From IMG/VR virus record IMGVR_UViG_3300031953_000001: 64,000 nt of DNA; one strand, 5' to 3'. This DNA is from a virus (lineage: Duplodnaviria; Caudoviricetes). The notes beneath the pieces are model-generated. The model ran no database searches. It was not told the origin of the DNA and was given only the letters and a program-made list of their open reading frames with translations. How positions within the stretch are numbered: position 1 is the stretch's first letter; every line of letters begins with the position of its first letter. A program made the translations under genes and the position numbers. This document shows, in pieces, positions 20,373 to 45,503 of this stretch.

Positions 20373-20391
20373 GTTGTGCACCTTTTATTAA

Positions 20392-26873: not shown

Positions 26874-27620
26874 TTACTCCTTTTTAATCAGACGAATAAA
26901 CCAGGCGGCAAAGTCCCATTCCCACCAGCGTTCTTGGGTGTTCCAATGTCCCGGGTGGGCGTGATGGTTGTTGTGCCATCCATCCCCAGCGGTTAATACG
27001 TTCATCAGCCAACTGTTACGACTGCGGTCGGGCGTCTCGTGGTTGCGGTAACCCCAACCATGGCCGAGGGTGTTGAACACTCCTTTCAGATGAAACAACA
27101 GAGCCGTAGGAAGACACCAGCCGTAGACCAGCAGTTTCCAGTCGATCAAACTCAACCCCAAGGCGTAAATCAGCAGAATGAGAACGTAGTAGTCGTGTGT
27201 GATCTGATAGAACCGTTGTTTACGTTCGGTTCGAATGGCGCGATGGTCCAAGACCCAAGGTCGATCCAGCCAATCTCCAAACCAAGCGTCGATAAGGCCG
27301 TGTTGGTGTTGGCTGTGTGGGTCTCTGGGGCGATCTGAAAAGCCGTGATGGGTTCGGTGTACCAATGCGTTTGTCAATGGCGAGCCTAATGCAGTCAAGA
27401 TCCCCACGCCCGTGAGTGCAAGCTCAATGGGTTTATAGGTTTCAAACGACCTGTGCGCCAACAATCGATGATACCCCACGGTGATGCCAAAGAACCCATA
27501 GGCGTAATAGATAGCTAATGTAAACCCAAGCCAGCCCCACCAGCCGAGATAGATCGCCAGAGGCAGAAACACACACAACACCAGTTGGTTGCAGATTTGA
27601 AGGTGTTTTAGATACGTCAT
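26874..27620 (-). CDS. membrane fatty acid desaturase (#4)
   Basis: HRLLAH, HRTHH, GDGWHNNHH. Confidence 0.92.
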   Translation of the reverse strand: MTYLKHLQICNQLVLCVFLPLAIYLGWWGWLGFTLAIYYAYGFFGITVGYHRLLAHRSFETYKPIELALTGVGILTALGSPLTNALVHRTHHGFSDRPRDPHSQHQHGLIDAWFGDWLDRPWVLDHRAIRTERKQRFYQITHDYYVLILLIYALGLSLIDWKLLVYGWCLPTALLFHLKGVFNTLGHGWGYRNHETPDRSRNSWLMNVLTAGDGWHNNHHAHPGHWNTQERWWEWDFAAWFIRLIKKE

Positions 27621-30714: not shown

Positions 30715-30783
30715 AGGTCTTCTCCTAACGGTTAAACTAAGTGTGGTCATACCATTTCAAGAAGATGAGCCCGATCCTTAAAG

Positions 30784-30815
30784 CGGAATAAGAGGAGACC
30801 TGTTGGTCTCCTCTT
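30784..30815 (-). terminator. hairpin + TATTCCG element closing the radical SAM/desaturase unit
   Basis: AAGAGGAGACC-tgtt-GGTCTCCTCTT with TATTCCG downstream on the minus strand. Confidence 0.75.
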
Positions 30816-30833: not shown

Positions 30834-31115
30834 TCAACGGGTACGTATAATAGCGGCTACATCATCCCGCCGAAGAGACGACATTAAGTCTGGGTTGCTG
30901 AACAAAACGTCGTCTATTAAAGTGGGGTTGTCTTTCTTCACCCGCCCCATTAACTTTGCGTATTCAACGACGGTCACTCGCGCAGCTTTACGAGAAGCGG
31001 TAACCTCAAACTGTGTGGTGCGTTTGTGGTTAAACTCCTCAACCGTGCGTTTGTAATCATCGATCGCCGCATTTAACTCCGCGCGCTTTACGTTTAAATC
31101 TGTAACTGTAACCAT
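30834..31115 (-). CDS. stand-alone copy of the N-terminal module of the two BspA proteins
   Basis: DL.VKRAELN.AIDDYK...EYAKL...VK.D.PT...LFS.P..M....RDD+A.I.RT shared with 21468-22682 and 54807-55961. Confidence 0.8.
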   Translation of the reverse strand: MVTVTDLNVKRAELNAAIDDYKRTVEEFNHKRTTQFEVTASRKAARVTVVEYAKLMGRVKKDNPTLIDDVLFSNPDLMSSLRRDDVAAIIRTR

Positions 31116-31124
31116 GACTGTGTC

Positions 31125-31973
31125 TCATATAGAGTCGAGGGAGGGATATCCTTCTCTCTTATCGACGTGTCGCATCAAATGGTGAGTCGATGGGTTTATC
31201 GGCGATGGGTGAGCGCCTTCGTTTGAGCGTTTACGAATGATCCGAATGATCCACGCGGGTAAGTCGAACTCCCACCATCGGACCTGGTTATTCCAATGTT
31301 GCGGATTGTGATGGTGGTTGTTGTGCCAGCCTTCCCCTAAGAACAACCAAGCCACCATCGGTGAATTGCGACTGTCGTCGTCGGTGTTGTAATTACGGTA
31401 ACCGACCGTGTGGGTCCAAGCCAAAGCGAACTTGAACACATACAGAATGATCGTGGCCGGCATGGCAAACGCAAAGACCACCAACCGCCAATCGATCGCC
31501 AGTAAGACCAAACACCAAACTCCCAAGATCGTGAAGTAGTGATTGTGACAAAACACGATGTCTTTCTGACGCAGCAGGTCTTTAGCTATTCTAGGCGACA
31601 GCTTTACCTCCGGCCAGTGCCCAAACCACACCCTAAAGAACCCCTGCACTTTGGGGCTGTGTGGGTCGGATGTGGTGTCTGCCTTGGCGTGATGGGTACG
31701 GTGCACGATCGTCCAGTTGATCGGAGAACCAAACCCCATCAACATCCCGACAAAGAGCAAAACGTAACGAATGGGGGTGTAGGTCTCAAATGACCTGTGG
31801 GCAACGTATCGGTGGTACCCCAAGGAGTTACCGAACAGACTGAGGACGTAGTACATCCCCAAGGCCACCAACAACCACTCGTATTGTTCGCTGTACATCA
31901 CGTATCCTAACCCCACCGCGGTTAACAGGTGATTGCCGCGGTTTAACCACAGTAGTTTGTGGTTATGGCTCAT
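31125..31973 (-). CDS. membrane fatty acid desaturase (#3)
   Basis: HRYVAH, HRTHH, GEGWHNNHH. Confidence 0.93.
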   Translation of the reverse strand: MSHNHKLLWLNRGNHLLTAVGLGYVMYSEQYEWLLVALGMYYVLSLFGNSLGYHRYVAHRSFETYTPIRYVLLFVGMLMGFGSPINWTIVHRTHHAKADTTSDPHSPKVQGFFRVWFGHWPEVKLSPRIAKDLLRQKDIVFCHNHYFTILGVWCLVLLAIDWRLVVFAFAMPATIILYVFKFALAWTHTVGYRNYNTDDDSRNSPMVAWLFLGEGWHNNHHHNPQHWNNQVRWWEFDLPAWIIRIIRKRSNEGAHPSPINPSTHHLMRHVDKREGYPSLDSI

Positions 31974-32770
31974 AACGTCCTCCGGTATTTAGGCAAAGGT
32001 GTATCGCGCCGGTGGATCAGTTTGATGATCTGTGCGGGGATGTCCCATTCCCACCAGCGTTCTTGGGTGGTCCACCGCGAAGGATGGGCGTGGTGGTTGT
32101 TGTGCCAGCCCTCACCCATGGTGACCAAGTTGGCGATCCAGCTGTTGCGACTGGTGTCACCCTTAAGGTCGTGGTTACGATAACCGTGCAGGTGAGGGAT
32201 AACGATGATGCCGCAGGCGCTGTGCAACGACAAGATTGCGGGTACGGCGTAGACAAAGACCACGCCTTGCCACCCCAGCGTTATGTACAGCAGCAAACAC
32301 CAAAGGATCAGGATCTCAAAGTAGTTGGCGTGCATCCATCGGTGCAACGGGTCTTTACGAAGCCCTTTGGAGACTCGACCCGCTTGGGTAAACCCCGAGG
32401 TGTTCCAGACCCCGAACCAAGCTCTGAATACCCCGATGTTTTGTGGGCTGTGTGGGTCGTGCTCTTGATCGGTGTGTATATGGTGGATGCGGTGTACGAT
32501 GGTCCAAGCCAAAGGGCTACCCACCGTGGTTAAAACCCCACAAAACAGTAAGAACGCTTCTATGGGCTTGTACGTCTTAAACGCACCATGAGCCGCCATG
32601 CGATGAAAGCCGACGTTGATGCCCAAGATGCCAATGAACCAGTAGGTTAACCACGACACCATAAGCCAGCCCCACCAGCCTTGTACGACCGCCCAGATCA
32701 CCAAGGGTAAGGCGATGATGTGGGTGGCGATTTGCAGTAAGCGTACGCCTTGGTTGTGTGTAAGTTTCAT
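31970..32770 (-). CDS. membrane fatty acid desaturase (#2)
   Basis: HRMAAH, HRIHH, GEGWHNNHH. Confidence 0.93.
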   Translation of the reverse strand: MKLTHNQGVRLLQIATHIIALPLVIWAVVQGWWGWLMVSWLTYWFIGILGINVGFHRMAAHGAFKTYKPIEAFLLFCGVLTTVGSPLAWTIVHRIHHIHTDQEHDPHSPQNIGVFRAWFGVWNTSGFTQAGRVSKGLRKDPLHRWMHANYFEILILWCLLLYITLGWQGVVFVYAVPAILSLHSACGIIVIPHLHGYRNHDLKGDTSRNSWIANLVTMGEGWHNNHHAHPSRWTTQERWWEWDIPAQIIKLIHRRDTPLPKYRRTL

Positions 32771-32773
32771 GCC

Positions 32774-33532
32774 TTATCCTCGTTTTTTAATGAGCCAAAT
32801 GAACATCGCTGGGGGATCGATCTCCCACCAACGGACTTGAAAGTTGTATCGCCCAGGGTGCGCGTGGTGGTTGTTGTGCCAGCCGTCGCCCATGGTCAAA
32901 AAATGACACAGCCAACTGTTCTTGCTGTTGTCCTTGATGTCGAAGTTACGGTATCCCCACTGATGCGCTAAGATGGCCAAGGCGTAACTGACAAAGAAGG
33001 TTGACAAAGCCGCGGGGATCAGATAGACCGCGATCACAATCTCAACCCCCCAAACCAACCACAGCGCCGCAACGATTGCCAGGTGCAGATGAAAATAATA
33101 GCGGTGTATCCACATGAACGATGGGGTATCGAGGATGTCTCGCATCGCCACTCGCCGGTCCTCGGTTTCAACGTAGTGCAAACACCATAAGGATTTCCAA
33201 TACCCCATGTGCCTATGACAATGGGGGTCTTTGGGTGTTTCGGTGTATCGGTGATGTACCCGATGTATCCACGCCCAACTGTGGGGAGTGCCTACCGTAC
33301 AAGGCACACTCAGAAGACCCAAGGCCCACTCTATCGGCCCGTACGTCTTAAAGGATCGATGCGATACGTACCGATGTAAATACGCGTTGAACCCGATGCC
33401 CTGAATGACGCCGTAAGCCAGCACACTGACCCACAACAACCCAGGGTCGGTCATCGCCAGATACACCACCCCAGGAATAAAACAAGCAAACAACATTAAC
33501 CGCCACCAGTTTAACCGTTGGGTGGTAAACAT
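32774..33532 (-). CDS. membrane fatty acid desaturase (#1)
   Basis: HRYVSH, HRVHH, GDGWHNNHH; AGGAG RBS before ATG 33532. Confidence 0.93.
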   Translation of the reverse strand: MFTTQRLNWWRLMLFACFIPGVVYLAMTDPGLLWVSVLAYGVIQGIGFNAYLHRYVSHRSFKTYGPIEWALGLLSVPCTVGTPHSWAWIHRVHHRYTETPKDPHCHRHMGYWKSLWCLHYVETEDRRVAMRDILDTPSFMWIHRYYFHLHLAIVAALWLVWGVEIVIAVYLIPAALSTFFVSYALAILAHQWGYRNFDIKDNSKNSWLCHFLTMGDGWHNNHHAHPGRYNFQVRWWEIDPPAMFIWLIKKRG

Positions 33533-33542
33533 AACACGTCTC

Positions 33543-34748
33543 CTAATGATGTTTCTGCAAAGCAAGGACTGAGTTTAGACCCCCAAACCCAAACGCAGTC
33601 TTAACCACCACGTTTATATCCACGTTGTCTTGACGTTGAGCCAATTGAATGGGGGCCAAGTCGGGATCGAGTGTACTCACTGGGTTGCCCACCAAAAACC
33701 GATGGTTCATCATCAGCACACTGTACCATATCTCAAGACTGCCTGAGGCGGTAACGCTGTGGCCGGTTAACCGTTTAAACGCAGTGACCGGAACGCTATC
33801 GCCATAGACGTCGTAAATCGCTTGAGCTTCGGCCACGTCGCCGTTGGGGGTTGACGTTGCATGGGCTGAGATGACGTCGGGGTATATCCCCTGAAGGTCC
33901 AGTTGCGCTTGCACTGAGGCCATGCAGCGCCGGGCTCCTTCCCCGGTGGGGTTGGTCAAGTCGCCGCCGTCGGAGTAATCCGCGTAAGCCACGCAGCGGG
34001 CGTAAGCGAACGTTCCTTGACGAGCAACCCAATGTTCATAAGACTCTACGATCAAACAGCCACCGCCTTCAGAAATGGTAAACCCCGCTCGATCTTTAGA
34101 GAAGGGTGCCGACGCATGAGTGGGATTATTGCCTCGGTACAACGCCCGCATGGCGTCAAAGCCGGCCAAGGTCTCCCCCAGAATCTTCTCAGCGCTCACA
34201 CAGACCACCACATCGGCTTTGCCCAACTCGATCAAGTCCATGGCCTGGGTAACCGTACGGACCCCAGAGGCGCAGGCGTGTTGAACCGTGTGCACAGGTC
34301 CTCGAATATTGAACAAGGCCGTTAGAGGTCCTGTGACAGCCGTGGGGATAGACTTAAGCAGCGCAAACGGGGAGGTGCGCTTTTCTCGATACCCCAACAG
34401 CGAATGCAATCCGTCGATTCCTGTGGCCCCCATCGCTGAGACCAACGCGGTGCGCTCACTGGCGAAGACCTCAAGACCCAACCCGGCGTCCGCCAAGGCC
34501 CGTAGAATAGACACGTAGCTGATGGCCAGAGTGTCGTTGTACACGCTCTTAGGTAAGTCGCGGGCAGGACTGTCCTCTTTAAGGTTGAACACGCAAGGGC
34601 TCCAAAAACTGGCTTTGAGGTTCTTGCTGAGTATCGCCATGGGACTGATGTTGGACGTCTCTGCTTTGAGGTTATCCACCAGTTCTTGCTGTGTCTGCCC
34701 CATGGGGGTGATTCCACCGGCGCCGGTGATGAGGGTATGAACGGACAT
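33543..34748 (-). CDS. beta-ketoacyl-ACP synthase (FabB/FabF type)
   Basis: Cys-His-His triad: HACASG, HATSTPNGD, KRLTGH; terminal FGFGGLNS. Confidence 0.93.
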   Translation of the reverse strand: MSVHTLITGAGGITPMGQTQQELVDNLKAETSNISPMAILSKNLKASFWSPCVFNLKEDSPARDLPKSVYNDTLAISYVSILRALADAGLGLEVFASERTALVSAMGATGIDGLHSLLGYREKRTSPFALLKSIPTAVTGPLTALFNIRGPVHTVQHACASGVRTVTQAMDLIELGKADVVVCVSAEKILGETLAGFDAMRALYRGNNPTHASAPFSKDRAGFTISEGGGCLIVESYEHWVARQGTFAYARCVAYADYSDGGDLTNPTGEGARRCMASVQAQLDLQGIYPDVISAHATSTPNGDVAEAQAIYDVYGDSVPVTAFKRLTGHSVTASGSLEIWYSVLMMNHRFLVGNPVSTLDPDLAPIQLAQRQDNVDINVVVKTAFGFGGLNSVLALQKHH

Positions 34749-34756
34749 GGCGTGGT

Positions 34757-35311
34757 TTACTCTTTTAGATAGACATCAATGGGGATGGCCAATCGTAACC
34801 CTTTGGCGTGTTCTTGCACGTAATGCTGCAAGTACGATGGGAAGATCAGCAACCCCCCCGTTTGGGGTTGGTGTTTGTACGGTTGAAAGTGGTTGTTGAT
34901 CACATCCCAAGGGTAACCGCGCGAAGCCAGACCGCGTGGGTCGCACACGGTTAAGTACCCCTCGCACGCTTCTAGATAATAAATGGCTGACACATGCGCC
35001 CCGGTGTGGTGGTGCAAGGGCGTACCGTGACCATCACTGCTGTTGCGCACCCACGCCTGCCAACTGTCGATCAGAGGCTCGTACGCAAACTGTTCGCACG
35101 CGTATTGCATGATCAACGGGATCAGCTGATCTTCCACAAACGCTTTGAGTCGTGGGTACTCTGGTAGATGGAGGTTTTTGGTCTCATCGATGGGGCGATC
35201 GTCGTAGGATCGACCAGGCATCAAGGCTTCTTCCACCAAGGCGTCCAGATTGGGGGCTGGAACCGTTTCTTCACGCAGTACAATCTTCCACGGTTGAATG
35301 TCGGTGGCCAT
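34757..35311 (-). CDS. 2OG-Fe(II) oxygenase (TIGR02466/2OG-FeII_Oxy_5-like)
   Basis: LHHH...SAIYY, DPRG, LLIFPSYLQHYV, R. Confidence 0.85.
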   Translation of the reverse strand: MATDIQPWKIVLREETVPAPNLDALVEEALMPGRSYDDRPIDETKNLHLPEYPRLKAFVEDQLIPLIMQYACEQFAYEPLIDSWQAWVRNSSDGHGTPLHHHTGAHVSAIYYLEACEGYLTVCDPRGLASRGYPWDVINNHFQPYKHQPQTGGLLIFPSYLQHYVQEHAKGLRLAIPIDVYLKE

Positions 35312-35321
35312 AGTTGAGTCC

Positions 35322-35885
35322 TTACTGGGGTTCTTTTAAATACAGATCGGTGGGCAGAGATACCCGCAACCCCTGACCGTGACCGTCAACGTAATGCTGC
35401 AAGTACGATGGGAAGATCAGCAAGAGTCCCGCTTGGGGGTTCTCACTGAACAGGTTAAAATGGCGGTTCCTCACGTCAGTAGGATAACCGCGACACGCCG
35501 ATCCCCTAGGGTCAACTAAGTTGATGCTGCCCTCACTGGCGCAGGGGTAATAGATGGATGACAAGAGTGCCCCACTGTGCTCGTGCAGCTTCATGCCTTC
35601 GCCCCCTACTGTCACGCGCAACCAGGCGGTGTAACTGTCCACAAACTGCCGTACCCCGAACTGCTGAGTCAGGTAGTCTTGCAAACGAGGCACTATCTCA
35701 TCGTACACCAAGCGATGGGCTTGAGGGAAATCGCGTTCTGACACCGTGTTGTCATCCAACTCCAACCCATCGAAGTTGCGATTGGTGGACCGCATCAAGG
35801 CTTCTGTGATCAACGCCTCGTTGTCCACTCCTTCAAGAATCTCCCGTCGTACCACACAGCGCCAGGGTTCTAGGTCTTGAAACAT
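35322..35885 (-). CDS. 2OG-Fe(II) oxygenase, tandem paralog
   Basis: LHEH...SSIYY, DPRG, LLIFPSYLQHYV, R. Confidence 0.85.
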   Translation of the reverse strand: MFQDLEPWRCVVRREILEGVDNEALITEALMRSTNRNFDGLELDDNTVSERDFPQAHRLVYDEIVPRLQDYLTQQFGVRQFVDSYTAWLRVTVGGEGMKLHEHSGALLSSIYYPCASEGSINLVDPRGSACRGYPTDVRNRHFNLFSENPQAGLLLIFPSYLQHYVDGHGQGLRVSLPTDLYLKEPQ

Positions 35886-36292
35886 GCAGCCTCCGCTAGA
35901 CACTCGTCTTTAAAGTAACGCACCGTAAAATCCACCCAGAGCCCGGTTAAAGGAATGTGGTCTATCCCCCCCAGCCCTTCAAGGATTTTGTCGTAGTCCG
36001 TTTTGTTCTCACTGTAAGGCACAAAGTACGGGTCGTTGCCAAACAACAAGTCAGGGTCATCCAATACCTCGTAGAAGTCTTCGTCAAAGTGATCGCGCAA
36101 CAGTCTGGCATAGATAACCGCAATGGCGTACGATTTCCCTGGATAAACAGACGCGGCTATAGGAGCACGAAAGTACCGTAAAGCCTCACCCACAACGTCA
36201 GGATCGGAGATGGTGGTGAAGTTGCGGGTATCGTCGCTGTGCTCTTCCGTCAGTCGGTGGTACAGAAGTTGATTGACTTTCCATTCTTTCAT
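35870..36292 (-). CDS. hypothetical protein of the radical SAM unit
   Basis: ATGA overlap with upstream gene; VYPGKSYAIAVIYA...DPYFVPY. Confidence 0.7.
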   Translation of the reverse strand: MKEWKVNQLLYHRLTEEHSDDTRNFTTISDPDVVGEALRYFRAPIAASVYPGKSYAIAVIYARLLRDHFDEDFYEVLDDPDLLFGNDPYFVPYSENKTDYDKILEGLGGIDHIPLTGLWVDFTVRYFKDECLAEAACFKT

Positions 36293-37377
36293 GCGATTCG
36301 CCTTTCCCAGTTGAATTCGTCTCGCATCGCTTGGGCGGTGGAGATGCAACGGTCAGCATTGGTGATGGCCATGACTTTCTGTACCCCTCGCTCGGCACAC
36401 TTAGCCACAAACTCACAGCCGCCGCAGATGCCGTTGGATTGGGCTAAACTCAAACACTCGAACATCCCCGCCTCTTCTTGCGCAAAGATGCTCTCAAAGG
36501 TCCAGGGACCGTCAACGCGATGCTCGGGTTCAAAGGACGAGAAGGCCTCCACAATGAACGGCGGCACGAACAACTCGCCGTTGCGATAGACCACGTCCCA
36601 GTCCTCGCCCTCACTCAATTGCAACTCGACGATGTCGAAATGTTCCCCACGCTCGGTTGCAGCCAAACGCGCGTCGATCAGCAGTCGGTTTAGATGGTGA
36701 AGACTGGTCAAGAACCGAGTCTGGTTCTCGGGGTCTCTCAAACTGTCTCGACCGTGGGGAAGAATGAAGTCGTTGTGTGACGTTGGGTGCAGTTCGGTGT
36801 GGTACATCCGGGTCAACAGGTCTTTGGTCAAGGTGAATTTACGCTTGACGTCGTTGGCGATCGATTCTTCAAAATTGATCACGGTGTAGACTCGGGTGAT
36901 GGTCACGGTCTTAAGGCAACTCTCAAAGTAAGCCACCTTCTGACGAATGCCATCCACGTACGCTGGGTTGTCCAAATGCCGCACTTCAAACGGCACCGTG
37001 AACTTCAACAGCCCGTTAGGGATCAGCGCTTCGACTTGTTCGGCTAAGCGCTCGTAGATCCGCGGGTTGGGGTCTATGAACGCACAGTTTAAGGTGGTCT
37101 TTAAGAACCGTTTGGCTATAGCTTTGATGCGGGGGTGTTCCAAGATCGCGTCTTTGTTCTCAGAGCTCAAAATGTCGGTGGGGCCTAGGATGAAATTGAG
37201 CATCTCCAACTCGGCCGTTTCAAACGACGTCAACATCCGGTCGATGCGATCGAACTCCTCCTCGGTTGGAAGTCGGTTGTTGTCTTTCTCCACCATACAC
37301 CCAGAACAGTGGTGACGGCACCCAGAGGCGATCTCCATGGTGAAGTCGATCAATTTGTTAACTTGAGATACGTGCAT
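36289..37377 (-). CDS. radical SAM-like protein (degenerate motif) with C-terminal Cys cluster
   Basis: CRHHCSGC; CGGCEFVAKC...C. Confidence 0.7.
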   Translation of the reverse strand: MHVSQVNKLIDFTMEIASGCRHHCSGCMVEKDNNRLPTEEEFDRIDRMLTSFETAELEMLNFILGPTDILSSENKDAILEHPRIKAIAKRFLKTTLNCAFIDPNPRIYERLAEQVEALIPNGLLKFTVPFEVRHLDNPAYVDGIRQKVAYFESCLKTVTITRVYTVINFEESIANDVKRKFTLTKDLLTRMYHTELHPTSHNDFILPHGRDSLRDPENQTRFLTSLHHLNRLLIDARLAATERGEHFDIVELQLSEGEDWDVVYRNGELFVPPFIVEAFSSFEPEHRVDGPWTFESIFAQEEAGMFECLSLAQSNGICGGCEFVAKCAERGVQKVMAITNADRCISTAQAMRDEFNWERRIA

Positions 37378-37381
37378 GTTC

Positions 37382-38437
37382 TCACCAATCGCATTTGTGG
37401 GGAAGATGTCCCAAAATAGAAAGACACTGGTCGGTCTCTAACAGCCGTTGCAGTCGATGCACCCCACGCGTCGCGCATTTGCTAACAAAGTGACACCCAG
37501 AACATGAGGTGAGGGTGGTGGCGTGTTCAACCGATTTAAAGTAGGTCTGTTGATCCGACCGTTGAATGGAATCCAGCGTCCACGGTTTATCGAATTTAAA
37601 GTCGGGGTGGAACACGGCGATGGGGCTGTTGATCAACGGAGCAATGTACAACTCACCGTCGCGGTACGATAAATGGTAATCTGAGCCGACGTGCGAATCC
37701 AAGTCGTCAATTTTAAACTCATACCCTTTATCGAGTTGATTGGCAAACACCGCGTTTTGCTTGAGAATGGTTCTGACGAATTCTTCCCGATTGCTCTTAA
37801 CGGTTAAGTCACGACGCCCATTGTGCAAGACGAAGGTGGTGGTGTCCGATCGTTTAAACAGCTGGATGTGGCGGGTTTCGTACAACACCTCTTCGGTGAT
37901 CAAGCCACTGTCAAGCATTGTCTCGGTCAGGTTCACTATAGTGGTCACACTGGCCAGACGAATGCTGGTTAAGTGCTGCTCAAACCAGGCAATACGCCCC
38001 CGCAGTTTCTCGATGTAGCCCAGGTTTCGATGGTGCTTCAATTCGAAAGGCACTAAGAACTCAACATCAAGGCCCGGCATGAACGCTTCCAGCTCTTTAG
38101 CAAACTGGACGTAGGCATCGGGATTGGGGTTCAAAAATGAGCAGTTGAACACCACCGATTTAAACCCCTTAACCATGTCTTTGATGGCTGGGTGGGTGAA
38201 TACGTCACGTCGGTTGCTGGCCGCCATGACATCCGTCGGGGCAAACTCCATCCACGACATCTCCCAGCCTCGTTGACGTACCTCTTCCACCACCTGAGTT
38301 AAGGCGTAAAGATCGTCTTCCGTGTACGGTGTAACGTCTTGGGTGTTGACACTGCAACCCGAACAGCTGTAGTCGCAGTCTTTCAACAACTCCAACGCAA
38401 GATTGCCAATGTTGTCTTCTCGGATCAGGAGGGTCAT
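37382..38437 (-). CDS. radical SAM-like protein (degenerate motif), paralog of 36289-37377
   Basis: CDYSCSGC; CSGCHFVSKC...C; ATGA overlap at 38434-38437. Confidence 0.7.
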   Translation of the reverse strand: MTLLIREDNIGNLALELLKDCDYSCSGCSVNTQDVTPYTEDDLYALTQVVEEVRQRGWEMSWMEFAPTDVMAASNRRDVFTHPAIKDMVKGFKSVVFNCSFLNPNPDAYVQFAKELEAFMPGLDVEFLVPFELKHHRNLGYIEKLRGRIAWFEQHLTSIRLASVTTIVNLTETMLDSGLITEEVLYETRHIQLFKRSDTTTFVLHNGRRDLTVKSNREEFVRTILKQNAVFANQLDKGYEFKIDDLDSHVGSDYHLSYRDGELYIAPLINSPIAVFHPDFKFDKPWTLDSIQRSDQQTYFKSVEHATTLTSCSGCHFVSKCATRGVHRLQRLLETDQCLSILGHLPHKCDW

Positions 38438-39381
38438 TGTTGCTCTGCCCATTGGATCAGGTGAATAAACCCGTTGCACGAGTACTCCGTGCTTTGGACG
38501 TCTCTTAAATGTTCCGACAGACAACGCCCTAAGTAGCGACACCCACTGCACCCAGAGTTTTGTACGCGCTCTTTCTCGGTCACGCACCATGCGAAATACT
38601 CATCGATGGAGTCTAACTCTAAGAAGAACTCGTTGTCTTGGGCGTCAAACTCCAACACCCCAAATTTCCCAGTGGGTGTCACATAGACGTGGTCGTCTGA
38701 AAAAGCGTTGCCCCGTCCGGCGATCACTTCATCCAACTGCTGTGCATTGACAAAGTCGAACTTCATCTCGTCACGGCGGGCGTGCAGTACTTTGATGAAC
38801 GCCTCGTACTCCGGATAACTGACCGGCAGTTGGTTGGCTTGATTGGGGCTGTAAGGCTTGATCTCCACCGAACTGAGGTTGGCCAGCAAGTTCAAGGTGC
38901 CAATGATCTCATCCGGGTTCTTTGCCAAAAGCGCGGGTGAGGCCAACATCAAGATGCAGAACTCCCGTTCCATCTTCAGCATTTGCTGAAAGACAAGGTC
39001 GCTTTTCTCTCGGGCGTCGAAATCGTAGCTGACCGACAGGTACCAATCGGGATCGTGCACCACCGGGTTGTTCATCGACAGGTTGGTGATGATGTTCAGA
39101 TCGTCAATGCCGCGAAGATGCAGTCCGGCTTTGAGTTCCGTCAAGTACTCCACAGGCAGCAGCAGAGGCTCGCCGCCGTACAGATCCACCATCCCGACCT
39201 CAGCCACGGCTAAGACCTCATCCACCCGCTCAAAGAGCCGTGAGAGCTTAAGACGTTGCTTGTCTCCAAGTTGCTCATCCGTCAAGTAACAAAACGAGCA
39301 ACGAAAGTTGCAATAGTAGCTAGGATTCAGGCTGAGGTTCAGAGTCGGCTTAACCGACGGCGATGATGTTGCTGGGTACAT
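38434..39381 (-). CDS. radical SAM protein
   Basis: CNFRCSFC, YGGEPLL, C-terminal CSGCRYLGRC...C. Confidence 0.9.
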   Translation of the reverse strand: MYPATSSPSVKPTLNLSLNPSYYCNFRCSFCYLTDEQLGDKQRLKLSRLFERVDEVLAVAEVGMVDLYGGEPLLLPVEYLTELKAGLHLRGIDDLNIITNLSMNNPVVHDPDWYLSVSYDFDAREKSDLVFQQMLKMEREFCILMLASPALLAKNPDEIIGTLNLLANLSSVEIKPYSPNQANQLPVSYPEYEAFIKVLHARRDEMKFDFVNAQQLDEVIAGRGNAFSDDHVYVTPTGKFGVLEFDAQDNEFFLELDSIDEYFAWCVTEKERVQNSGCSGCRYLGRCLSEHLRDVQSTEYSCNGFIHLIQWAEQQ

Positions 39382-40450
39382 CGATGGCCTCATTGACGTA
39401 GTCGGTAGGGATCAGTTGTCCGGTTAACCCATTGGCGTCGATGATCTGAGGGGCCAGAGCTTTCATCTTCACGCAGTGTTCTTCCACCCGCCCGGTTTTC
39501 TTTGCGTCGCGGATGCTTTTCTTGCACCCGTTGCAGATTGAAAACATAGGACAGAAGTAACAACTCTGTTTCAGGCTGGCCAACTCAACCACCTGCAAGG
39601 GCCGTTGTTTTGCCCCCGCCATCTCAACTTCAAAGTCAATGGGGTATTCTCCATCGTCACCAAAGGAGCCGCAGGAGTAATAACCGCCGTTGGGTTGCAT
39701 GTTGCGAATGCCCGAGTCACAATCCCGAGCCAAAGGACAGGTGGTTGCTCCCCCGGCTAAGACGGTCATCATCTGTTGAGTGCTGTGTTCCCACTGAGCC
39801 AGCCCTGCGGCGTAGATCTCAAGGTACACCTCGTACATGTCGGCCACCACAAAGTGCTGACCTTCGTTGCCCATGGTGCCTTTTCGAGTCTGGATCACCG
39901 GTCCTGAGGCGTTGGCGTAGTTCAGTTTGCACACCACGCCCATGGCCTTGGCCAACTCCACCGTTTTTACCGCTGTGTCGCGGTTGCTTTCGTCGATGAC
40001 CGCAATGAACCCAGGACGATAACCCACGTGTTCCAGCATGGCGTCTGAGACGCCCCAGAACTCCTCTTCGGTGAAAGGGGTATAATCACCCTTTAAACGT
40101 TTGTCACCGTACTGGAAACTGGTGTGGACCCCAATGCGAGGATGATTGAACAGCTCAGACCACATCGAGGGTTTCTTGTAGAAAGGCCAGAGGTTAGTGG
40201 TCAAAGATAAGACCGTCTCCTCCATCTCCAACTCGTCCAAGACCGCAATTATGTCCCAGTAATACTGCACTGGCATCATCAGAGGATCACCGCCGTTGAC
40301 GATGATGGTCTGGGTTTCTGGGTAACGCACTAAGAACCGCCGGATGTCCGCCACAGACACTATGTCGTCTTTGTCGTCAGCGATGTTGGTGCTGGAGCAA
40401 AAGGTGCATTTAAAATTGCATTTCTCAGTCGGTTTTATGATCAAGTCGAT
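39350..40450 (-). CDS. radical SAM/SPASM protein (start ATC 40450 or TTG 40444)
   Basis: IKPTEKCNFKCTFC, NGGDPL, CPLARDC...SCG...CYFCPMFSICNGC...C. Confidence 0.92.
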   Translation of the reverse strand: MDLIIKPTEKCNFKCTFCSSTNIADDKDDIVSVADIRRFLVRYPETQTIIVNGGDPLMMPVQYYWDIIAVLDELEMEETVLSLTTNLWPFYKKPSMWSELFNHPRIGVHTSFQYGDKRLKGDYTPFTEEEFWGVSDAMLEHVGYRPGFIAVIDESNRDTAVKTVELAKAMGVVCKLNYANASGPVIQTRKGTMGNEGQHFVVADMYEVYLEIYAAGLAQWEHSTQQMMTVLAGGATTCPLARDCDSGIRNMQPNGGYYSCGSFGDDGEYPIDFEVEMAGAKQRPLQVVELASLKQSCYFCPMFSICNGCKKSIRDAKKTGRVEEHCVKMKALAPQIIDANGLTGQLIPTDYVNEAIDVPSNIIAVG

Positions 40451-40481
40451 GTTACTACCCTCCTACTCAGACCTACTCCAA

Positions 40482-41540
40482 TCATACCGCTACAATTGGA
40501 ATCAGACCCAAGGCAGTGTTGTGCAAGACGTCGATGTATCGGTGGGTGGCTTTATACACACACTCGTCCATCTCGTCGCGAAAGCGGTAATTGTGTTGCA
40601 TGAAACAGCCCAACTCACACCGATGAAAATACTCACAGGTGGTGCAGCCGTACTTCTCCATGAACGCTTCTTCTATACCGCTGTTGTCTTTGGCTTCAAT
40701 GGGGGTGGTGTAAATATCTTTGGCCACCTCCGGGTCGATCAGATTCCCGCAGCCGCAAATCGTGCCATCTTCCAACACCAACTTACTGGACCGACACGAC
40801 AGACTCGACGACTGACGTTTCAACCAACCGGCGATCGGCTCACACCGAGGGTAGCGATCGATCAGAAACTTGAACATACGAAACAGGTCGGTGTCGCTGG
40901 GGGCGGCGTCGGTGCGCTCATCCGGCATCAGGTAATCAAAGTACATCTTGAACCCGGCCTGATACGCCCACTGAAAGAACTCGTCGGTGTCTTTTACAAA
41001 GTGGTCGATGTTTTGTTTGGTCATCAACAAACTGATGCTGGTCACTGTCTCAGGGCCGTAGTATTCCAGGTTGGCACGGAACTGTTTGAACTGCTTCCGA
41101 TTGAACCGTCCTTTAGGATCGTAAGAGACGGTCACGGTGGTCTTGACGTCCACCGTTTGTACTCGCTCCAAAAAAGACGTCAGCTGAGTGGTGTCCGGAG
41201 TCACCAGGTTGGTGACCCAGTTCAAGGTTACCTCTAGGTTCAGCTCGCGACACATCTCAGCGATCGCTTGACTGAAGTAGAGGTACGTGTCCGCCAGAAG
41301 TGGGGTAAAGATCTCAGGAGCAAAGACCTCACCGCCCATGATGTTAAACACCACCTGCGATTTGGTCTCTTGTTCCAACAGCGACCGAACAATAGGGAGC
41401 TTGTCCAGTACGTCATCTACCCCCACCAGTGAATCGTGATCCTGCCAACAGAAACTGCACGACAGATTGCAATAGGTAAACAGGTGCAACGTGTACTCCT
41501 GTTCCTTATCGCGTTTGTTCTGTAAAAAGAGGTCGGTCAT
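40482..41540 (-). CDS. radical SAM/SPASM protein
   Basis: CNLSCSFC, MGGE, C...CGC...CTTCEYFHRCELGC...C. Confidence 0.92.
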   Translation of the reverse strand: MTDLFLQNKRDKEQEYTLHLFTYCNLSCSFCWQDHDSLVGVDDVLDKLPIVRSLLEQETKSQVVFNIMGGEVFAPEIFTPLLADTYLYFSQAIAEMCRELNLEVTLNWVTNLVTPDTTQLTSFLERVQTVDVKTTVTVSYDPKGRFNRKQFKQFRANLEYYGPETVTSISLLMTKQNIDHFVKDTDEFFQWAYQAGFKMYFDYLMPDERTDAAPSDTDLFRMFKFLIDRYPRCEPIAGWLKRQSSSLSCRSSKLVLEDGTICGCGNLIDPEVAKDIYTTPIEAKDNSGIEEAFMEKYGCTTCEYFHRCELGCFMQHNYRFRDEMDECVYKATHRYIDVLHNTALGLIPIVAV

Positions 41541-42550
41541 AGTTCAAAGCCTTTGCACGCCTCCGGACTCAGACTCACGGCCCAATGGATTAAGTGCACG
41601 TTGAGTTTGTCCAGATCCGCCCAGTCCAGGTAATCGGTGTGCTCGTTGCTGGCACGGAGCATGTCGATGAACAGATCGGTGACTTGGTTGTTGCCCATGG
41701 GTACGCTGGTGTTAACGATCTTCAACTTAGCCCGCTCGGCGCTGACTTGAGTTTTCTCAATCGCCTCCGACTGCTCCAGATACAACGCGTAGTCACTCAC
41801 CACCGCCTCGATGGCCGCTGGCTTAAGTCGAGTAATGCCGGCTCTCAACTTAGGGTTGTTGATCATGGTGAGCCTAGGAATCTTCGACAACAAATCAACT
41901 TCTCCTAAGTGGTCTTTTGCCGTGTACCCGTATTTCTCTTGCATGTAATCTGAGAAGAACAGAAGCGTCAGATTGCGTTGAGTCTCATCGAGGGTGTTGA
42001 GTACGCCGCGCAGGGCAAACACTCGGATCGACTCGGCGATGCTGGCGCGTTTGTTCCCAGATAGATGATCCAGTAACTTATACTCCAACGACACCCGCTG
42101 AGTCAGGTCTTGGGTCAATGTTCTTAACTTGTCTTCCCTTGGGGTACGACTCAAGTTCTCGATCCACGTCTTTAAAGTCGTCGGGTCAGGCAAGCCGACG
42201 CCTTGAGCGTGCAGGGTCAGCATCTCCAAGTTAAGGAGTGTCTTTATCTGATCGTCCTGAGCGTTAGGGAAGATGGCTTTCAACCACATAGCCACCAAGG
42301 CCCCATACGTCTCCAAACTGACATAGATCACCAGCTTAGCATCGCCGGCTTCTACAAACTTGGCCAGCAGCTCGACAAACCCCTCGTCGATAAAGGCCGC
42401 CTCATCCTGAGTCTTACCCACCATCACAGGACCCACGCCCAAACGTTCGTCGTAGTTCTCAGCCAGCTGAGCCGACGCCAGATAGAAGGTGTGCTTATCC
42501 GACTTGAGTGAATCTACTTCGAGGTAAACCCGACTGAATAAATGATACAT
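41537..42550 (-). CDS. hypothetical protein of the radical SAM unit
   Basis: 337 aa, coupled on both sides; no catalytic motif recognised. Confidence 0.75.
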   Translation of the reverse strand: MYHLFSRVYLEVDSLKSDKHTFYLASAQLAENYDERLGVGPVMVGKTQDEAAFIDEGFVELLAKFVEAGDAKLVIYVSLETYGALVAMWLKAIFPNAQDDQIKTLLNLEMLTLHAQGVGLPDPTTLKTWIENLSRTPREDKLRTLTQDLTQRVSLEYKLLDHLSGNKRASIAESIRVFALRGVLNTLDETQRNLTLLFFSDYMQEKYGYTAKDHLGEVDLLSKIPRLTMINNPKLRAGITRLKPAAIEAVVSDYALYLEQSEAIEKTQVSAERAKLKIVNTSVPMGNNQVTDLFIDMLRASNEHTDYLDWADLDKLNVHLIHWAVSLSPEACKGFEL

Positions 42551-43275
42551 TACGCGTCCTCGATGGCTTCGTGGTTGTGCTTTAAGGTAGACATCAGTCC
42601 GTCAAACTCGGTGTCTGTGACCACCTCGGCGTCGCTGAAGGTCAACGACATCAGGTACACGTCGTTCTCCGGGATTGCCCAGAAGTGAAACAGGTTCTTA
42701 CTTTTGAACATGTAGTCGTTGAAATACTTGGTGTAGTTCTTCACCAACCCCTCGTTAACTGCCCCTAAGGCAATTGGAAACAACGGGTTATCAAACAAAT
42801 GAACAAAGTTAATGCCTTTGGTATCCGACGTGTCGTCTGTGGGATAAACGTCCACCACGCTTTGGAGCTTCTCGTCCTGAAACGTGGTCATCACGTACAG
42901 ACTCATCGAGTCAATCAACGACAGCCACTTGCCCAAGATCTCAAGGTGCTCTTTGATCCACTGATCGGTGACCCAGCTGCACTCGGCAAGTCCTTTGATG
43001 TGCAAGACGACTTCCAACACCAAGGTTTCCAGTTGAGGGCACTTTAACAAGGTCGGCAGATTGAGGTACGCGTCCACCACCTCCAGGACGTCTTCACCCA
43101 AGAACGTAACGTCCACCGGCAACTCCAAGTTGCTCAGATAGATCAACGCTTGTAAGGGCGCTACTTTATCTTTGGAGGCACTCAGGTCCACGTCCAGGAT
43201 CACGTCAGGGTCGCCGATCACGGCTCTGAGGGTGGTTACGGGTATGGGTACGTTGGTTTTAATGACGGTACTCAT
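42550..43275 (-). CDS. hypothetical protein of the radical SAM unit
   Basis: TGATG overlap with the CHxx-tail gene gives start 43275. Confidence 0.75.
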   Translation of the reverse strand: MSTVIKTNVPIPVTTLRAVIGDPDVILDVDLSASKDKVAPLQALIYLSNLELPVDVTFLGEDVLEVVDAYLNLPTLLKCPQLETLVLEVVLHIKGLAECSWVTDQWIKEHLEILGKWLSLIDSMSLYVMTTFQDEKLQSVVDVYPTDDTSDTKGINFVHLFDNPLFPIALGAVNEGLVKNYTKYFNDYMFKSKNLFHFWAIPENDVYLMSLTFSDAEVVTDTEFDGLMSTLKHNHEAIEDA

Positions 43276-43829
43276 CAACGGCGTCCTCGGGAGTTGTGGC
43301 AGTTGCTGTGACATTGCGTATGACACACTTGTCGTGAGAAAGTTCTAAGCGTATTAACTCGGGCGCTCTGAGCGTAGAGGTTGCGCACCCGTTCAATGTA
43401 GTCGTATGTTTGAGACTGATCCACCGGCAATCCGTTGACCAACCCACCGGCGGCAGGACTCGCCAGAGGCACGTAATCGCCCGCCGGTAAATGCGCAATG
43501 GCGATCGCGTTGTAGATCACCGTGGCGGTGTTGTTGGAGTACCCGGACTTACTGCGGGTGATGTAGATTTGGGTACGACGAATCCGTGAGTACACGTTAA
43601 CGTAACTCATAAAGACATCACGTAAGGTTTTGGCGGTTAACTCGTCTGAGGGCACTTGCAGTTGCGCCAACGAGGGCACGCCTAGATCGCCTGAGGTGGT
43701 GCCACCGAACCAACTCACCAGCGAGTTAGCTGGATAGATGTTGGTACCCCAAGAGATACCCGATCGGGTGTATCCAACCACCCGTCCTACGAACTGATTG
43801 TACACGTCTAATGATTTAACGTCAGCCAT
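43275..43829 (-). CDS. putative structural protein with C-terminal (CHxx)3-SRGRR tail; candidate radical SAM substrate
   Basis: 184 aa ending VCHTQCHSNCHNSRGRR; these are its only Cys; flanked by radical SAM genes. Confidence 0.75.
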   Translation of the reverse strand: MADVKSLDVYNQFVGRVVGYTRSGISWGTNIYPANSLVSWFGGTTSGDLGVPSLAQLQVPSDELTAKTLRDVFMSYVNVYSRIRRTQIYITRSKSGYSNNTATVIYNAIAIAHLPAGDYVPLASPAAGGLVNGLPVDQSQTYDYIERVRNLYAQSARVNTLRTFSRQVCHTQCHSNCHNSRGRR

Positions 43830-43873
43830 GATCGCTTCCTATTGATTAAATTCCCATACGATCTGACGACCGC

Positions 43874-44923
43874 TTATCCGACGTTGAGTGCCGGAATTAG
43901 TTCAGGCGCGCCGTATTTAAAGTGCGAGAGCAACAACATCAACCCCGGACACGAATCGCCCTGCCACACCAAGCGGTGACAATCGCCTCCACACACGTCC
44001 AACAGATGGCAACTCACGCAGTTGGGGTTGAGGTCCAACTCGGTGGTGATGCGCTCCATCCGTCCTTCACTGACCAGAAACTCATCAATGGGGTCGTTCA
44101 AGGTACCGTTGGATTCTGCCTTAGCCCCGTTGGCACAACCGCCGATGTTGCCAGCTCCATCAATAGTGAACAGATTCTGTTCACAGTCACGACAGTTGGT
44201 GTCTACTTTGAACTGATTGGTTTCAAACTTGGTTTCAATGGCGTCCAAGGTGTTGATGTGGTAGTTGGGCTTTAGTCGCTTGTACGCAAAGTACAGGTCG
44301 TAGTAAAACCGATCCACCGCTCGATTGTCTGGAAACATGTGGGGGTTGTCCACCGCGTTGCCATCGGACGTCAAGCGCTCCACCGCAATCTCCGTTACCC
44401 CAAATTCTCCCCACAAGTGAATCAACTCGTCGATGTCGTACGTCAGTAACTGATCGGTCACCGTGACGAACATCTTGATGGTGATGCCTTGAGCTCGCAG
44501 CATGGTCAAGTTGTTGCGCCACTGCGTGTACATGCGTTCGGTCTTAAACCGATAAACCGGGTCCCAACTGGTGCCCACGTGACTGCTCATCATCGTCTTA
44601 AAGAATTCGACGTGGCGATCGGTTAGCTTGTAGATCAGATTGGTGGTGGCGCCAATGGAGATATCTTCCCAACGTTCGACACTGACCCGCGACCGCACCG
44701 CGTTAGCAAACTGCCAGTGCTCGTCAATCGGGCGTAAGAAAGGCTCACCCCCGTGCAATTCTAGATGTAGATGTTCCTCGGGAAATCGCTGACCTAATTC
44801 ACTGGCCCACTGTGCTACTTTATCGATGTCCCAGACGGTTTTAGCGCCCTTAGACCCGGAGGTGAAACAGTGATCGCAATCGAGGTTGCAGGTGTCCGTG
44901 GGTTTTATGTAAACAACTTTCAT
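43874..44923 (-). CDS. radical SAM/SPASM protein
   Basis: IKPTDTCNLDCDHC, HGGEPF, CRDC...GC...CVSCHLLDVCGGDC...C. Confidence 0.92.
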   Translation of the reverse strand: MKVVYIKPTDTCNLDCDHCFTSGSKGAKTVWDIDKVAQWASELGQRFPEEHLHLELHGGEPFLRPIDEHWQFANAVRSRVSVERWEDISIGATTNLIYKLTDRHVEFFKTMMSSHVGTSWDPVYRFKTERMYTQWRNNLTMLRAQGITIKMFVTVTDQLLTYDIDELIHLWGEFGVTEIAVERLTSDGNAVDNPHMFPDNRAVDRFYYDLYFAYKRLKPNYHINTLDAIETKFETNQFKVDTNCRDCEQNLFTIDGAGNIGGCANGAKAESNGTLNDPIDEFLVSEGRMERITTELDLNPNCVSCHLLDVCGGDCHRLVWQGDSCPGLMLLLSHFKYGAPELIPALNVG

Positions 44924-45402
44924 AACTTCCACCGGTCTTCAATAAAACGTTCATTGCCAAAACTGATCATGATCGACTCCTCGTGATTCAACGCGCGGTG
45001 AGGCACACCGGCGAGAACCCAGACACCGGGGTTGTCTGCGTTTAACGTTACCAGCTCCCCTGCAATCTCAAGGGTCTTAGTGCCCCAGATCCACTTTAAG
45101 TAAATGTCATAGGGGTCTTGATGAAGAGGGAAACTGGGAGCCCCGGCACAGGCCCAAAACAAATGAGCGTTGCAAGGTCCCTCGTGTCCGCTTTCTTCTT
45201 TGATACGACACGTTTCTAAGTAGACCTCTTTAAAGACTTTCTCCAACTCTTCTACCTTTACAGTTTTTAAACTGTCGTCAAACACCTCGGCTGCCGATTG
45301 AGCTGGGCGTATCTGTTGGTCAGCATCAATGCGCGAGACCATACCTTCTTCGTACAAATCGGGTAGGGTGAGCAGCAGCTCAAGTCGGTCTTTAAAGTCC
45401 AT
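44920..45402 (-). CDS. minimal JmjC/cupin_4-like 2OG oxygenase
   Basis: SFPLHQDPYD (HxD), GTK, distal His in GVPHRA; GAGGAG RBS before ATG 45402. Confidence 0.75.
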   Translation of the reverse strand: MDFKDRLELLLTLPDLYEEGMVSRIDADQQIRPAQSAAEVFDDSLKTVKVEELEKVFKEVYLETCRIKEESGHEGPCNAHLFWACAGAPSFPLHQDPYDIYLKWIWGTKTLEIAGELVTLNADNPGVWVLAGVPHRALNHEESIMISFGNERFIEDRWKL

Positions 45403-45459
45403 CGCGTGTCTCCTCGTTAATCTCATAAGGTGTATGATTAACGTACGGCTTTATATAAA

Positions 45460-45489
45460 AGGGAAAAAAGAGAGGACCGAAGTCCTCTC
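45460..45489 (-). terminator. intrinsic terminator separating the fibre gene from the radical SAM unit
   Basis: Minus strand GAGAGGAC-TTCG-GTCCTCTC-TTTTTT. Confidence 0.85.
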
Positions 45490-45503
45490 GTGTGGGGTGT
45501 GCG

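Follow-up and report, generated by a model that had tools for sequence, protein, structure and literature searches.

In the HXS antiphage system the protein HxsA is matured by the radical S-adenosylmethionine (SAM) enzymes HxsB and HxsC together with HxsD; the repeats of HxsA are its modified and essential part, with a gain of +8 Da on SHRSS (Li et al., Nat Commun 2026, PMC13128918). Radical-SAM cassettes are also known from phages: in pelagimyophages and cyanomyophages they share the host-recognition cluster, a variable tail-fibre island, with metabolic genes, and in freshwater pelagimyophages fabF and stearoyl-CoA desaturase have been noted (Zaragoza-Solas et al. 2020, PMC7029224). The viral fatty-acid desaturase (FAD) genes of Arctic cryopeg brine all stem from two viruses with five copies each, fall into clades without microbial relatives and are proposed to make membranes more fluid when cold and salt impose stress (Zhong et al. 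2020, PMC7300359), and the viral FADs (vFADs) of cyanophages are demonstrated delta-9 desaturases (Roitman et al. 2018, PMC5776448). Here we describe a locus that brings such genes together: a block of 18 genes in a 64,000-nucleotide stretch, referred to as the window, of IMG/VR virus record IMGVR_UViG_3300031953_000001 (Duplodnaviria; Caudoviricetes). On balance we think it probable that the block comprises two separate, adjacent modules, a radical-SAM cassette (module 1, g01 through g13) that would modify the C-terminal tail of the protein g03 for the virion, and a lipid module (module 2), a ketosynthase (KAS, g14) with five desaturases, that would alter host lipids.

The cassette is the more surprising half. 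It is found on jumbo-phage contigs by the hundreds and also in predatory bacteria, its function is so far unreported, and genome papers name its genes only as accessory radical-SAM, cupin and 2-oxoglutarate (2OG) proteins without an assigned role. The lipid module is of a kind already known from brine viruses; what is new is that the two halves dissociate cleanly in both directions and that KAS is tightly linked to desaturases, along with the five old desaturase groups and the brine setting.

Independent distribution of the two modules

The original prediction for this locus had put forward a single integrated pathway, a hybrid of lipid synthesis and of the maturation of peptides that are ribosomally synthesised and modified post-translationally (RiPPs) that would lipidate a virion protein, and had offered as the alternative two unrelated modules, for protein maturation and membrane remodelling, in one packed block. 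It had also named independent distribution of the halves as the observation that would speak against integration, and independent distribution is what we observe. Among the best 80 of 332 viral contigs that encode a relative of g07, the set to which all counts of viral cassette loci refer, KAS or desaturases are present at two loci, both in near relatives of the window phage. Viewed from the desaturases, in the best 80 of at least 574 viral stretches that encode such an enzyme, 33 loci carry 2-11 tandem copies and the cassette is found at one. This was the outcome of the suggested synteny check for co-occurrence of radical-SAM with KAS and desaturase genes, and it suits the two-module alternative, not the integrated pathway.

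No match to PF00487 or PF00109 was found in the complete genomes of the cassette-bearing isolates SURPRISE13, RSF1, pPa_SNUABM_DT01 and Atu_ph07; three complete viral cassette genomes have no desaturases, and g07 is missing from two 100%-complete genomes, of 364 and 355 kb, that have desaturase arrays. A 223-kb genome with terminal repeats (IMGVR_UViG_3300011906_000002, our G011) carries the cassette at ~29-51 kb and three desaturases at 217843-220895, so that the modules are evidently able to coexist unlinked. At all ten KAS-clade loci open to inspection the ketosynthase adjoins one to five desaturases. It follows the cassette at six of the ten; at the other four it follows a tail-fibre gene, the homologue of 45504-46961 in the window, there is no cassette gene within 10 kb (at loci L006-L008 the absence rests on +/-10 kb and conserved synteny), and three unrelated small genes or desaturases occupy the cassette's place. 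The two halves are distributed independently and have separate histories.

Genes of the cassette and of the lipid module

The 184-aa product of g03 had been singled out as the candidate substrate, a choice that both its conservation and the virion proteome of a relative uphold. Its C-terminal tail reads CHTQ-CHSN-CHNS-RGRR. In the homologues of five isolates the Cys, the His and the three Arg of the tail are all invariant, and they are the sole invariant columns of the g03 alignment, the bodies of the proteins being 20-32% identical. At 67 of the 80 g07-selected loci the same strand carries, a few kb upstream, an open reading frame (ORF) that ends in CHxxCHxxCHxxRxRR-stop, and position 4 of the repeat is mainly Ser or Asn. 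The AlphaFold (AF2) model of g03, built with 49 homologues, has a body with a predicted local distance difference test (pLDDT) score of 89.9 and a tail with low values, which points to a folded domain with a flexible terminus. The modelled fold matched other phage proteins only and no solved structure (Foldseek, VIA-align), the model of g04 likewise matched no solved structure convincingly, and the best VIA-align/Foldseek Z values for the two were 4.5 and 5.2, respectively; no Pfam or NCBIfam domain was found in g03. At three loci (L066:1890-3604, L073:2978-4491 and L075:2978-4491) there are two tandem Cys-His-tailed paralogues (247-309 aa), not one.

The g03 homologue of Agrobacterium phage Atu_ph07 is gp170, with a mass of 31.89 kDa that we confirmed by calculation. 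It was identified in virions by 8 peptides at 35% coverage; alone among the well-supported proteins of <40 kDa it had its highest abundance in the top gel band, and its neighbours among gp165-172, the cassette enzymes, are absent from the virion list (PMC6102473 Table S5). We infer that this pattern fits a high-mass virion form resistant to sodium dodecyl sulphate (SDS), possibly covalent, that is made by enzymes which do not themselves enter the virion. The protein g03 is thus a well-supported candidate and probably the substrate of the cassette.

Six radical-SAM genes had been predicted, and CX3CX2C is present in all six proteins (g02 and g06-g10), three of which pass the Pfam model. Against PF04055 (cut-off 29.5 bits) g02, g07 and g08 score 32.6, 36.6 and 34.9 bits, g06 and g10 remain below it with 18.7 and 19.2 bits, and g09, 30% identical to g10, has no match; judged from these sequences, membership of the family is firm for the first three and probable for g06, g09 and g10. 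The whole genome holds five PF04055 (Radical_SAM) matches, all inside the block. With the SPASM model TIGR04085 (cut-off 27 bits) g02 scores 28.9 bits, above the cut-off, and g06 and g07 17.2 bits each, below it; g08, g09 and g10 have partial CxxCxxxxxC motifs, as judged by eye. The best weak NCBIfam matches of the six are maturases of peptides or proteins (DynA, AmcB, PapB, anSME and HxsB/C). A PADLOC scan returned mere generic radical-SAM similarity to pVip N-termini. Identity of g07 is 52-80% among phages and ~50% in Bdellovibrionota.

The first gene had been called JmjC-like. Its HxD...H motif, unchanged across 25 homologues, is of the Fe(II)-oxygenase type as that call implied, but its profile matched cupins (E 1e-7) and, only weakly, MINA53, a JmjC protein (E 5.5e-5), and no Pfam match was found, JmjC included; cupin is the better name. 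The 2OG oxygenases g12 and g13 exceed the 27-bit cut-off of PF13759 (2OG-FeII_Oxy_5). These paralogues appear to have a common short repeat that confuses assemblers; DNA contigs of a source-like run break at 34818-34852 and 35394-35418, and one RNA contig jumps back 571 between 35388 and 34818. For g04, g05 and g11 there was no NCBIfam match at E 0.1, at which distant similarity is possible; ESM Atlas searches with g04 and g11 yielded nothing usable, and the PDB profile matches of these two were discarded as spurious repeat matches only.

Most cassette genes are present at 69-79 of the 80 loci, with lower counts for g03 (67), g01 (62) and g05 (17). Radical-SAM homologues of 50-62% identity are encoded by the isolated jumbo phages RSF1 and RSL2 of Ralstonia, SURPRISE13 of Burkholderia, FLC6 and FLC8, pPa_SNUABM_DT01 of Pseudomonas, Atu_ph07 of Agrobacterium and Phosso of Sinorhizobium. 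Four isolate records were opened, those of the complete genomes SURPRISE13, RSF1, pPa_SNUABM_DT01 and Atu_ph07: after the tail genes the order cupin, radical SAM, small protein, g04, radical SAMs and g11 is kept in 4/4, and 2OG oxygenases end the cassette in three. Two genes annotated as dihydrofolate reductase (DHFR) lie within the cassettes of SURPRISE13 (L002:12852-14029) and RSF1 (L003:12861-13977), in RSF1 with an HNH endonuclease gene directly upstream of them; the cassette evidently tolerates unrelated genes, as with the KAS/desaturase set in the window. The cassette with a CHxxCHxxCHxxRGRR-tailed ORF is also found in Bdellovibrionota (Bacteriovoracaceae, Pseudobdellovibrio; loci among L188-L212, e.g. 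L211 and L212), on contigs that include ones of 2.4-2.8 Mb, and several of these loci have a weak tail-fibre-like match. At the equivalent site after SbcC and tail genes, Ralstonia phages RP12 and RP31 have a different radical-SAM set, made up of a 537-aa radical-SAM protein and anSME-like, MoaA-like and MgoB-like proteins (PMC5468394 Table S2). Radical-SAM clusters in general seem to dock at this locus.

In the lipid module, the predicted FabB/F-like ketosynthase is confirmed by both of its domains, PF00109 and PF02801 (91.2 and 70.2 bits), and by an end-to-end alignment with FabB structures (4XOX, 1FJ4) at ~35% identity in which the Cys-His-His triad and the Lys are intact. It scores below the equivalog cut-offs of NF005935 (FabB; 239.5 vs 630) and TIGR03150 (FabF; 228.2 vs 493.75), which by sequence places it within the FabB/FabF family as an orthologue of neither. 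Its clade is small and metagenomic, with 43-75% identity inside it and <=37% to bacterial FabB; in the scan of viral contigs a single sequence found nothing and an alignment query was required. The tblastn matches in isolate phages, all <=37%, were rejected and look like host-type FabB/FabF or contaminant contigs.

Three desaturases had been predicted in the block and are there, but the window has five, two of which (d3 and d5) lie beyond the downstream hairpin. All five exceed the PF00487 cut-off (29.7 bits) and keep the His boxes HX4H, HX2HH and HX2HH, whose histidines are invariant in 16 sequences, and the desaturase profile matches SCD1 (4YMK/4ZYO) at E 5e-37. They class as SCD/DesC-type membrane desaturases, and may have the delta-9 regiospecificity on acyl-lipid or acyl-CoA of that type. 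A maximum-likelihood tree and reciprocal similarities divide the window's five into five groups, each represented by an orthologue of its own in two further phage contigs, and the set is therefore old, with each member maintained, and does not consist of recent duplicates. The order KAS-d1-d2-d3-d4-(175 aa)-d5 is uninterrupted in those two contigs and likewise in the nearest IMG/VR relative; in the window, the insertion of a tail fibre and further genes after d4 puts d3 and d5 beyond the hairpin. The small genes around the desaturases, in the window and in L006/L007, have no Pfam match. Downstream of the last desaturase lie genes for a DUF285/PKD surface-type protein (21468-22682) and a PG_binding_1-muramidase endolysin (19569-20381), and that endolysin also follows the desaturase array in L007, L008 and L222. 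Two further viral loci carry 11 desaturase genes in 20 kb (L154, IMGVR_UViG_3300013006_001903) and 7 (L149), arrays that far exceed the published five-copy set.

Table 1. Features of the block and its surroundings. Coordinates are positions within the 64-kb window of the virus record; fractions of 80 are cassette loci.
Feature	Position	Strand	Remarks
Intrinsic terminator	45470-45489	-	8-bp stem, UUCG loop, U6 tract, z -3.2; ends upstream tail-gene transcript
g01, cupin-fold putative Fe(II) oxygenase	44920-45402	-	HxD...H invariant; phrog_8014; 62/80
g02, radical SAM/SPASM enzyme	43874-44932	-	CX3CX2C; TIGR04085 above cut-off; 71/80
g03, 184-aa folded protein with disordered Cys-His tail	43275-43829	-	probable substrate; 67/80
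g04, conserved cassette protein	42550-43275	-	phrog_20767; start overlaps g03 stop; 69/80
g05, poorly conserved protein	41537-42550	-	17/80
g06, radical SAM-like	40482-41540	-	CX3CX2C, C-terminal Cys cluster; Pfam below cut-off; 75/80
g07, radical SAM/SPASM-like enzyme	39350-40444	-	most conserved gene of the cassette
g08, radical SAM enzyme	38434-39393	-	partial C-terminal Cys motif; 79/80
g09, radical SAM-like paralogue of g10	37382-38437	-	CX3CX2C; no Pfam match; ATGA overlap with g08
g10, radical SAM-like	36289-37377	-	CX3CX2C; weak Pfam match
g11, conserved 140-aa cassette protein	35870-36292	-	phrog_20737; 75/80
g12, 2OG-Fe(II) oxygenase	35322-35885	-	PF13759, TIGR02466-like, 47.4 bits
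g13, 2OG-Fe(II) oxygenase, final cassette gene	34757-35311	-	PF13759, 50.8 bits
g14, FabB-like elongating ketosynthase (KAS)	33543-34748	-	8 nt after g13; opens the lipid module
g15, membrane desaturase, orthologue group d1	32774-33532	-	FA_desaturase
g16, membrane desaturase, orthologue group d2	31970-32770	-	FA_desaturase
g17, membrane desaturase, orthologue group d4	31125-31973	-	FA_desaturase
g18, 93-aa protein	30834-31115	-	present only in nearest relative
Downstream hairpin	30790-30815	.	11 bp, GC-rich, z -5.7
Desaturase, orthologue group d3	26874-27620	-	outside block, behind tail-fibre gene
Desaturase, orthologue group d5	22735-23487	-	outside block; most divergent

The parent virus record is complete, 222,493 bp long, with direct terminal repeats. 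Much of the architecture described in the original prediction holds. The 18 minus-strand ORFs of the list are all present (30834-45426) and tightly packed, with junctions of -44 to +44 nt of which the majority are overlaps, of the ATGA/TGATG type, or gaps of <=10 nt. The upstream UUCG terminator (45489-45470: GAGAGGAC-UUCG-GUCCUCUC, then U6) and the downstream hairpin are as foreseen, the latter lacking a U-tract on the coding strand, and tail genes flank both sides: the upstream neighbour (45504-46961) matches phrog_2163/13857, a tail/virion gene, the downstream one (27701-29923) is a tail fibre, and genes for a baseplate protein and SbcC lie farther off. The assignment of the last, 93-aa gene (g18) to the virion module falls away, with no match in any family library searched. 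No strong terminator was seen within the block, including between the end of the cassette and KAS, and with the whole block as megablast query no GenBank phage matched. The block lies in a tail-fibre-adjacent variable region, and such regions gather accessory genes in many large phages.

Runs from 15 studies contain the stretch, most of them brine metagenomes. Brine runs dated 2019-2024 have it at full identity, aquatic metagenomes with a slightly smaller share of its words, and it is also present in a single metatranscriptome. Contigs of the RNA library have a depth of 2.6-12 over the block against 38-94 over the flanking tail genes, and DNA-run depth over the stretch is flat (356-394), so the RNA signal is not merely carried-over DNA, which argues that the block is transcribed modestly, below its neighbours. 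RNA contigs stop in adapter sequence at 45498, where the tail-gene contig ends shortly ahead of the terminator, and at 30723, a little past the hairpin, from where a contig of higher depth continues; these ends fit the terminator and hairpin boundaries of the block. The junction of g13 and KAS is bridged by no RNA contig among those listed, and such contigs cannot reveal the span of a transcript or rank genes.

Proposed mechanism and its alternatives

In the two-module reading, the six radical-SAM enzymes and three Fe(II) oxygenases would act on the exposed (Cys-His-x-x)x3-R-x-R-R tail of g03. The likeliest chemistry would be cross-links or other side-chain modifications on Cys, His and their neighbours, then hydroxylation, after which the matured g03 would be incorporated in the virion. 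KAS and the five desaturases would use host acyl-ACP (ACP, acyl carrier protein) and host membrane or acyl-CoA lipids, and fatty-acid unsaturation in the infected cell would be raised or diversified, which would plausibly be of use in brine that is cold and salty. In bacterial type II fatty-acid synthesis the output of unsaturated fatty acids is under the control of FabB and FabF, and the simplest reading of KAS with desaturases is therefore a toolkit for unsaturation.

Several points weigh against this reading. The radical-SAM proteins score far under every curated maturase model, and a RiPP recognition element (RRE) or PqqD domain was not found in any cassette protein with Pfam or NCBIfam. 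Small molecules, too, can be substrates of SPASM/twitch enzymes. That gp170 runs high on the gel could be due to oligomers that resist SDS instead of covalent links. In the window and its five nearest relatives KAS starts ~10-60 nt past the last cassette gene, and given this short gap and the lack of a terminator, co-transcription and some lineage-specific functional coupling of the modules are possible. An electron donor, an ACP and a PlsC-type acyltransferase were not found in the phage genome, which is absence of evidence only, and five conserved, distinct desaturases seem to exceed the apparent need of simple fluidisation.

The target of the cassette might be something other than g03, namely a small-molecule cofactor, a sugar decoration of the fibres or another protein, with g03 as a structural or scaffold protein whose tail binds metal. 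The CHxxCH repeats do resemble metal ligands; the tail is, however, the sole invariant part of a fast-evolving protein and is modelled as disordered and terminal, like enzyme-accessible substrate tails. The SPASM/twitch group includes small-molecule enzymes, weak matches to MoaA, NirJ and HpnH were obtained and an RRE was not found, yet HXS, the best characterised analogue, modifies an HxS-repeat protein. Relatives with DHFR-like genes inserted in the cassette, and other Ralstonia jumbo phages with a different radical-SAM set at the same locus, likewise loosen the tie to g03, against which stands the co-occurrence of g03 and its tail with the enzymes in 67/80 viral loci and in bacteria. We regard a different target as unlikely.

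For the lipid module, it is rather improbable, in our estimate, though a serious rival, that the product is a specialised lipid and not a contribution to bulk fluidity, for instance a fatty acid that is polyunsaturated (PUFA) or otherwise unusual, or a metabolite resembling an oxylipin or polyyne, serving lysis timing, signalling or the killing of competitors. Five old, individually conserved desaturase groups imply five specificities, but all five paralogues are of the SCD/DesA type. The dedicated, divergent KAS always accompanies these desaturases (10/10 KAS-clade loci), and other phage loci have up to 11 desaturases; the thioesterase, acyl-AMP ligase, ACP and acyltransferase of polyyne/PUFA clusters were nevertheless not found, and the brine habitat makes homeoviscous adaptation the simpler account. 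An analogy with polyyne clusters, which pair desaturases with a thiolase-like gene, was set aside in view of the missing ligase, ACP and thioesterase of such clusters.

An integrated pathway, in which an unusual acyl chain, unsaturated and made in this lineage by KAS and the desaturases, would be attached to the radical-SAM-matured tail of g03 or to another virion protein, is very unlikely, since the abutment of KAS on the last 2OG oxygenase gene in 6/10 KAS-clade loci, the lack of a strong terminator inside the block and free tail Cys that could be acylated are set against halves that are independent over ~160 viral loci and several complete genomes, four KAS-desaturase loci without the cassette at the syntenic position, two of five desaturases outside the block, an ACP and a PlsC-type acyltransferase not found in the genome, and a tail motif that is identical in phages without lipid genes. 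Slimmer still is the chance that, in the abutting lineage, an acyl chain on the matured g03 tail would yield a lipidated, cross-linked protein engaging or crossing the host envelope in cold brine.

If the enzymes do rewrite the Cys-His tail, as the two-module reading proposes, virions would be enzymatically matured in a novel way and the HXS defence chemistry of bacteria would have its counterpart on the phage side, and cultivable relatives with the cassette exist in RSF1, SURPRISE13, pPa_SNUABM_DT01 and Atu_ph07. KAS and five conserved desaturases would form a coherent lipid-unsaturation toolkit in brine phages, beyond stray desaturase copies, and module 2 sharpens the published hypothesis of cold and salt adaptation. 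Once split, the loosely defined hybrid pathway gives way to two questions that can be tested.

Comparison with known systems

The lipid module shares with the viral FADs of brine the three-His-box phage desaturases of the SCD/DesC type, of which there are five per virus in brine. It differs from them in the dedicated FabB-like KAS linked to the array in the window and at nine other loci, and in that the window's five copies are old orthologue groups, not recent duplicates. From bacterial FabB its KAS is set apart by a separate, metagenomic, phage-linked clade and by an ACP not being found in the phage genome. The host-recognition cluster of pelagimyophages and cyanomyophages is likewise a variable tail-fibre island that gathers radical-SAM and metabolic genes, but it belongs to a T4-like lineage, as opposed to RSL2/RSF1-like jumbo phages, and the Cys-His-tailed protein is not described there.

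With the SPASM maturases (anSME, QhpD, sacti/ranthipeptide maturases and cyclophane synthases) the cassette has in common CX3CX2C and, in some proteins only partially, a C-terminal Cys motif of the auxiliary-cluster type; g02 passes the SPASM model, and the weak best matches include the QHNDH maturase. On the other hand no equivalog threshold is neared, no RRE was found and the candidate substrate is a folded protein of 184 aa. The cassette's resemblance to a RiPP pathway is limited to the logic: there is no short leader-core precursor, g03 is folded and its homologue stays in the Atu_ph07 virion, and RRE/PqqD matches were not obtained.

The likeness to HXS lies in several radical-SAM genes beside a protein, not a short peptide, with His-x-Ser-type repeats rich in basic residues. 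The enzymes are nevertheless distant, with 39.5 bits for g02 against HxsB (cut-off 370) and 24.1 for g07 against HxsC (cut-off 267.9), and a match to HxsD was not found among the cassette proteins (NCBIfam, E 0.1). HxsA-type effectors have five HxS repeats, a peptidoglycan-binding domain and N-terminal export processing, whereas g03 is without such a domain and has three CHxx repeats, only HNS being strictly HxS, in a C-terminal tail where an invariant Cys precedes each His. The cassette, moreover, is phage-encoded and combines six radical-SAM proteins with three oxygenases, and the g03 homologue is part of the virion instead of an effector of defence. By its scores against HxsB and HxsC and by the HxsA-type features the cassette is not a member of the HXS family, and HXS is its closest characterised analogue.

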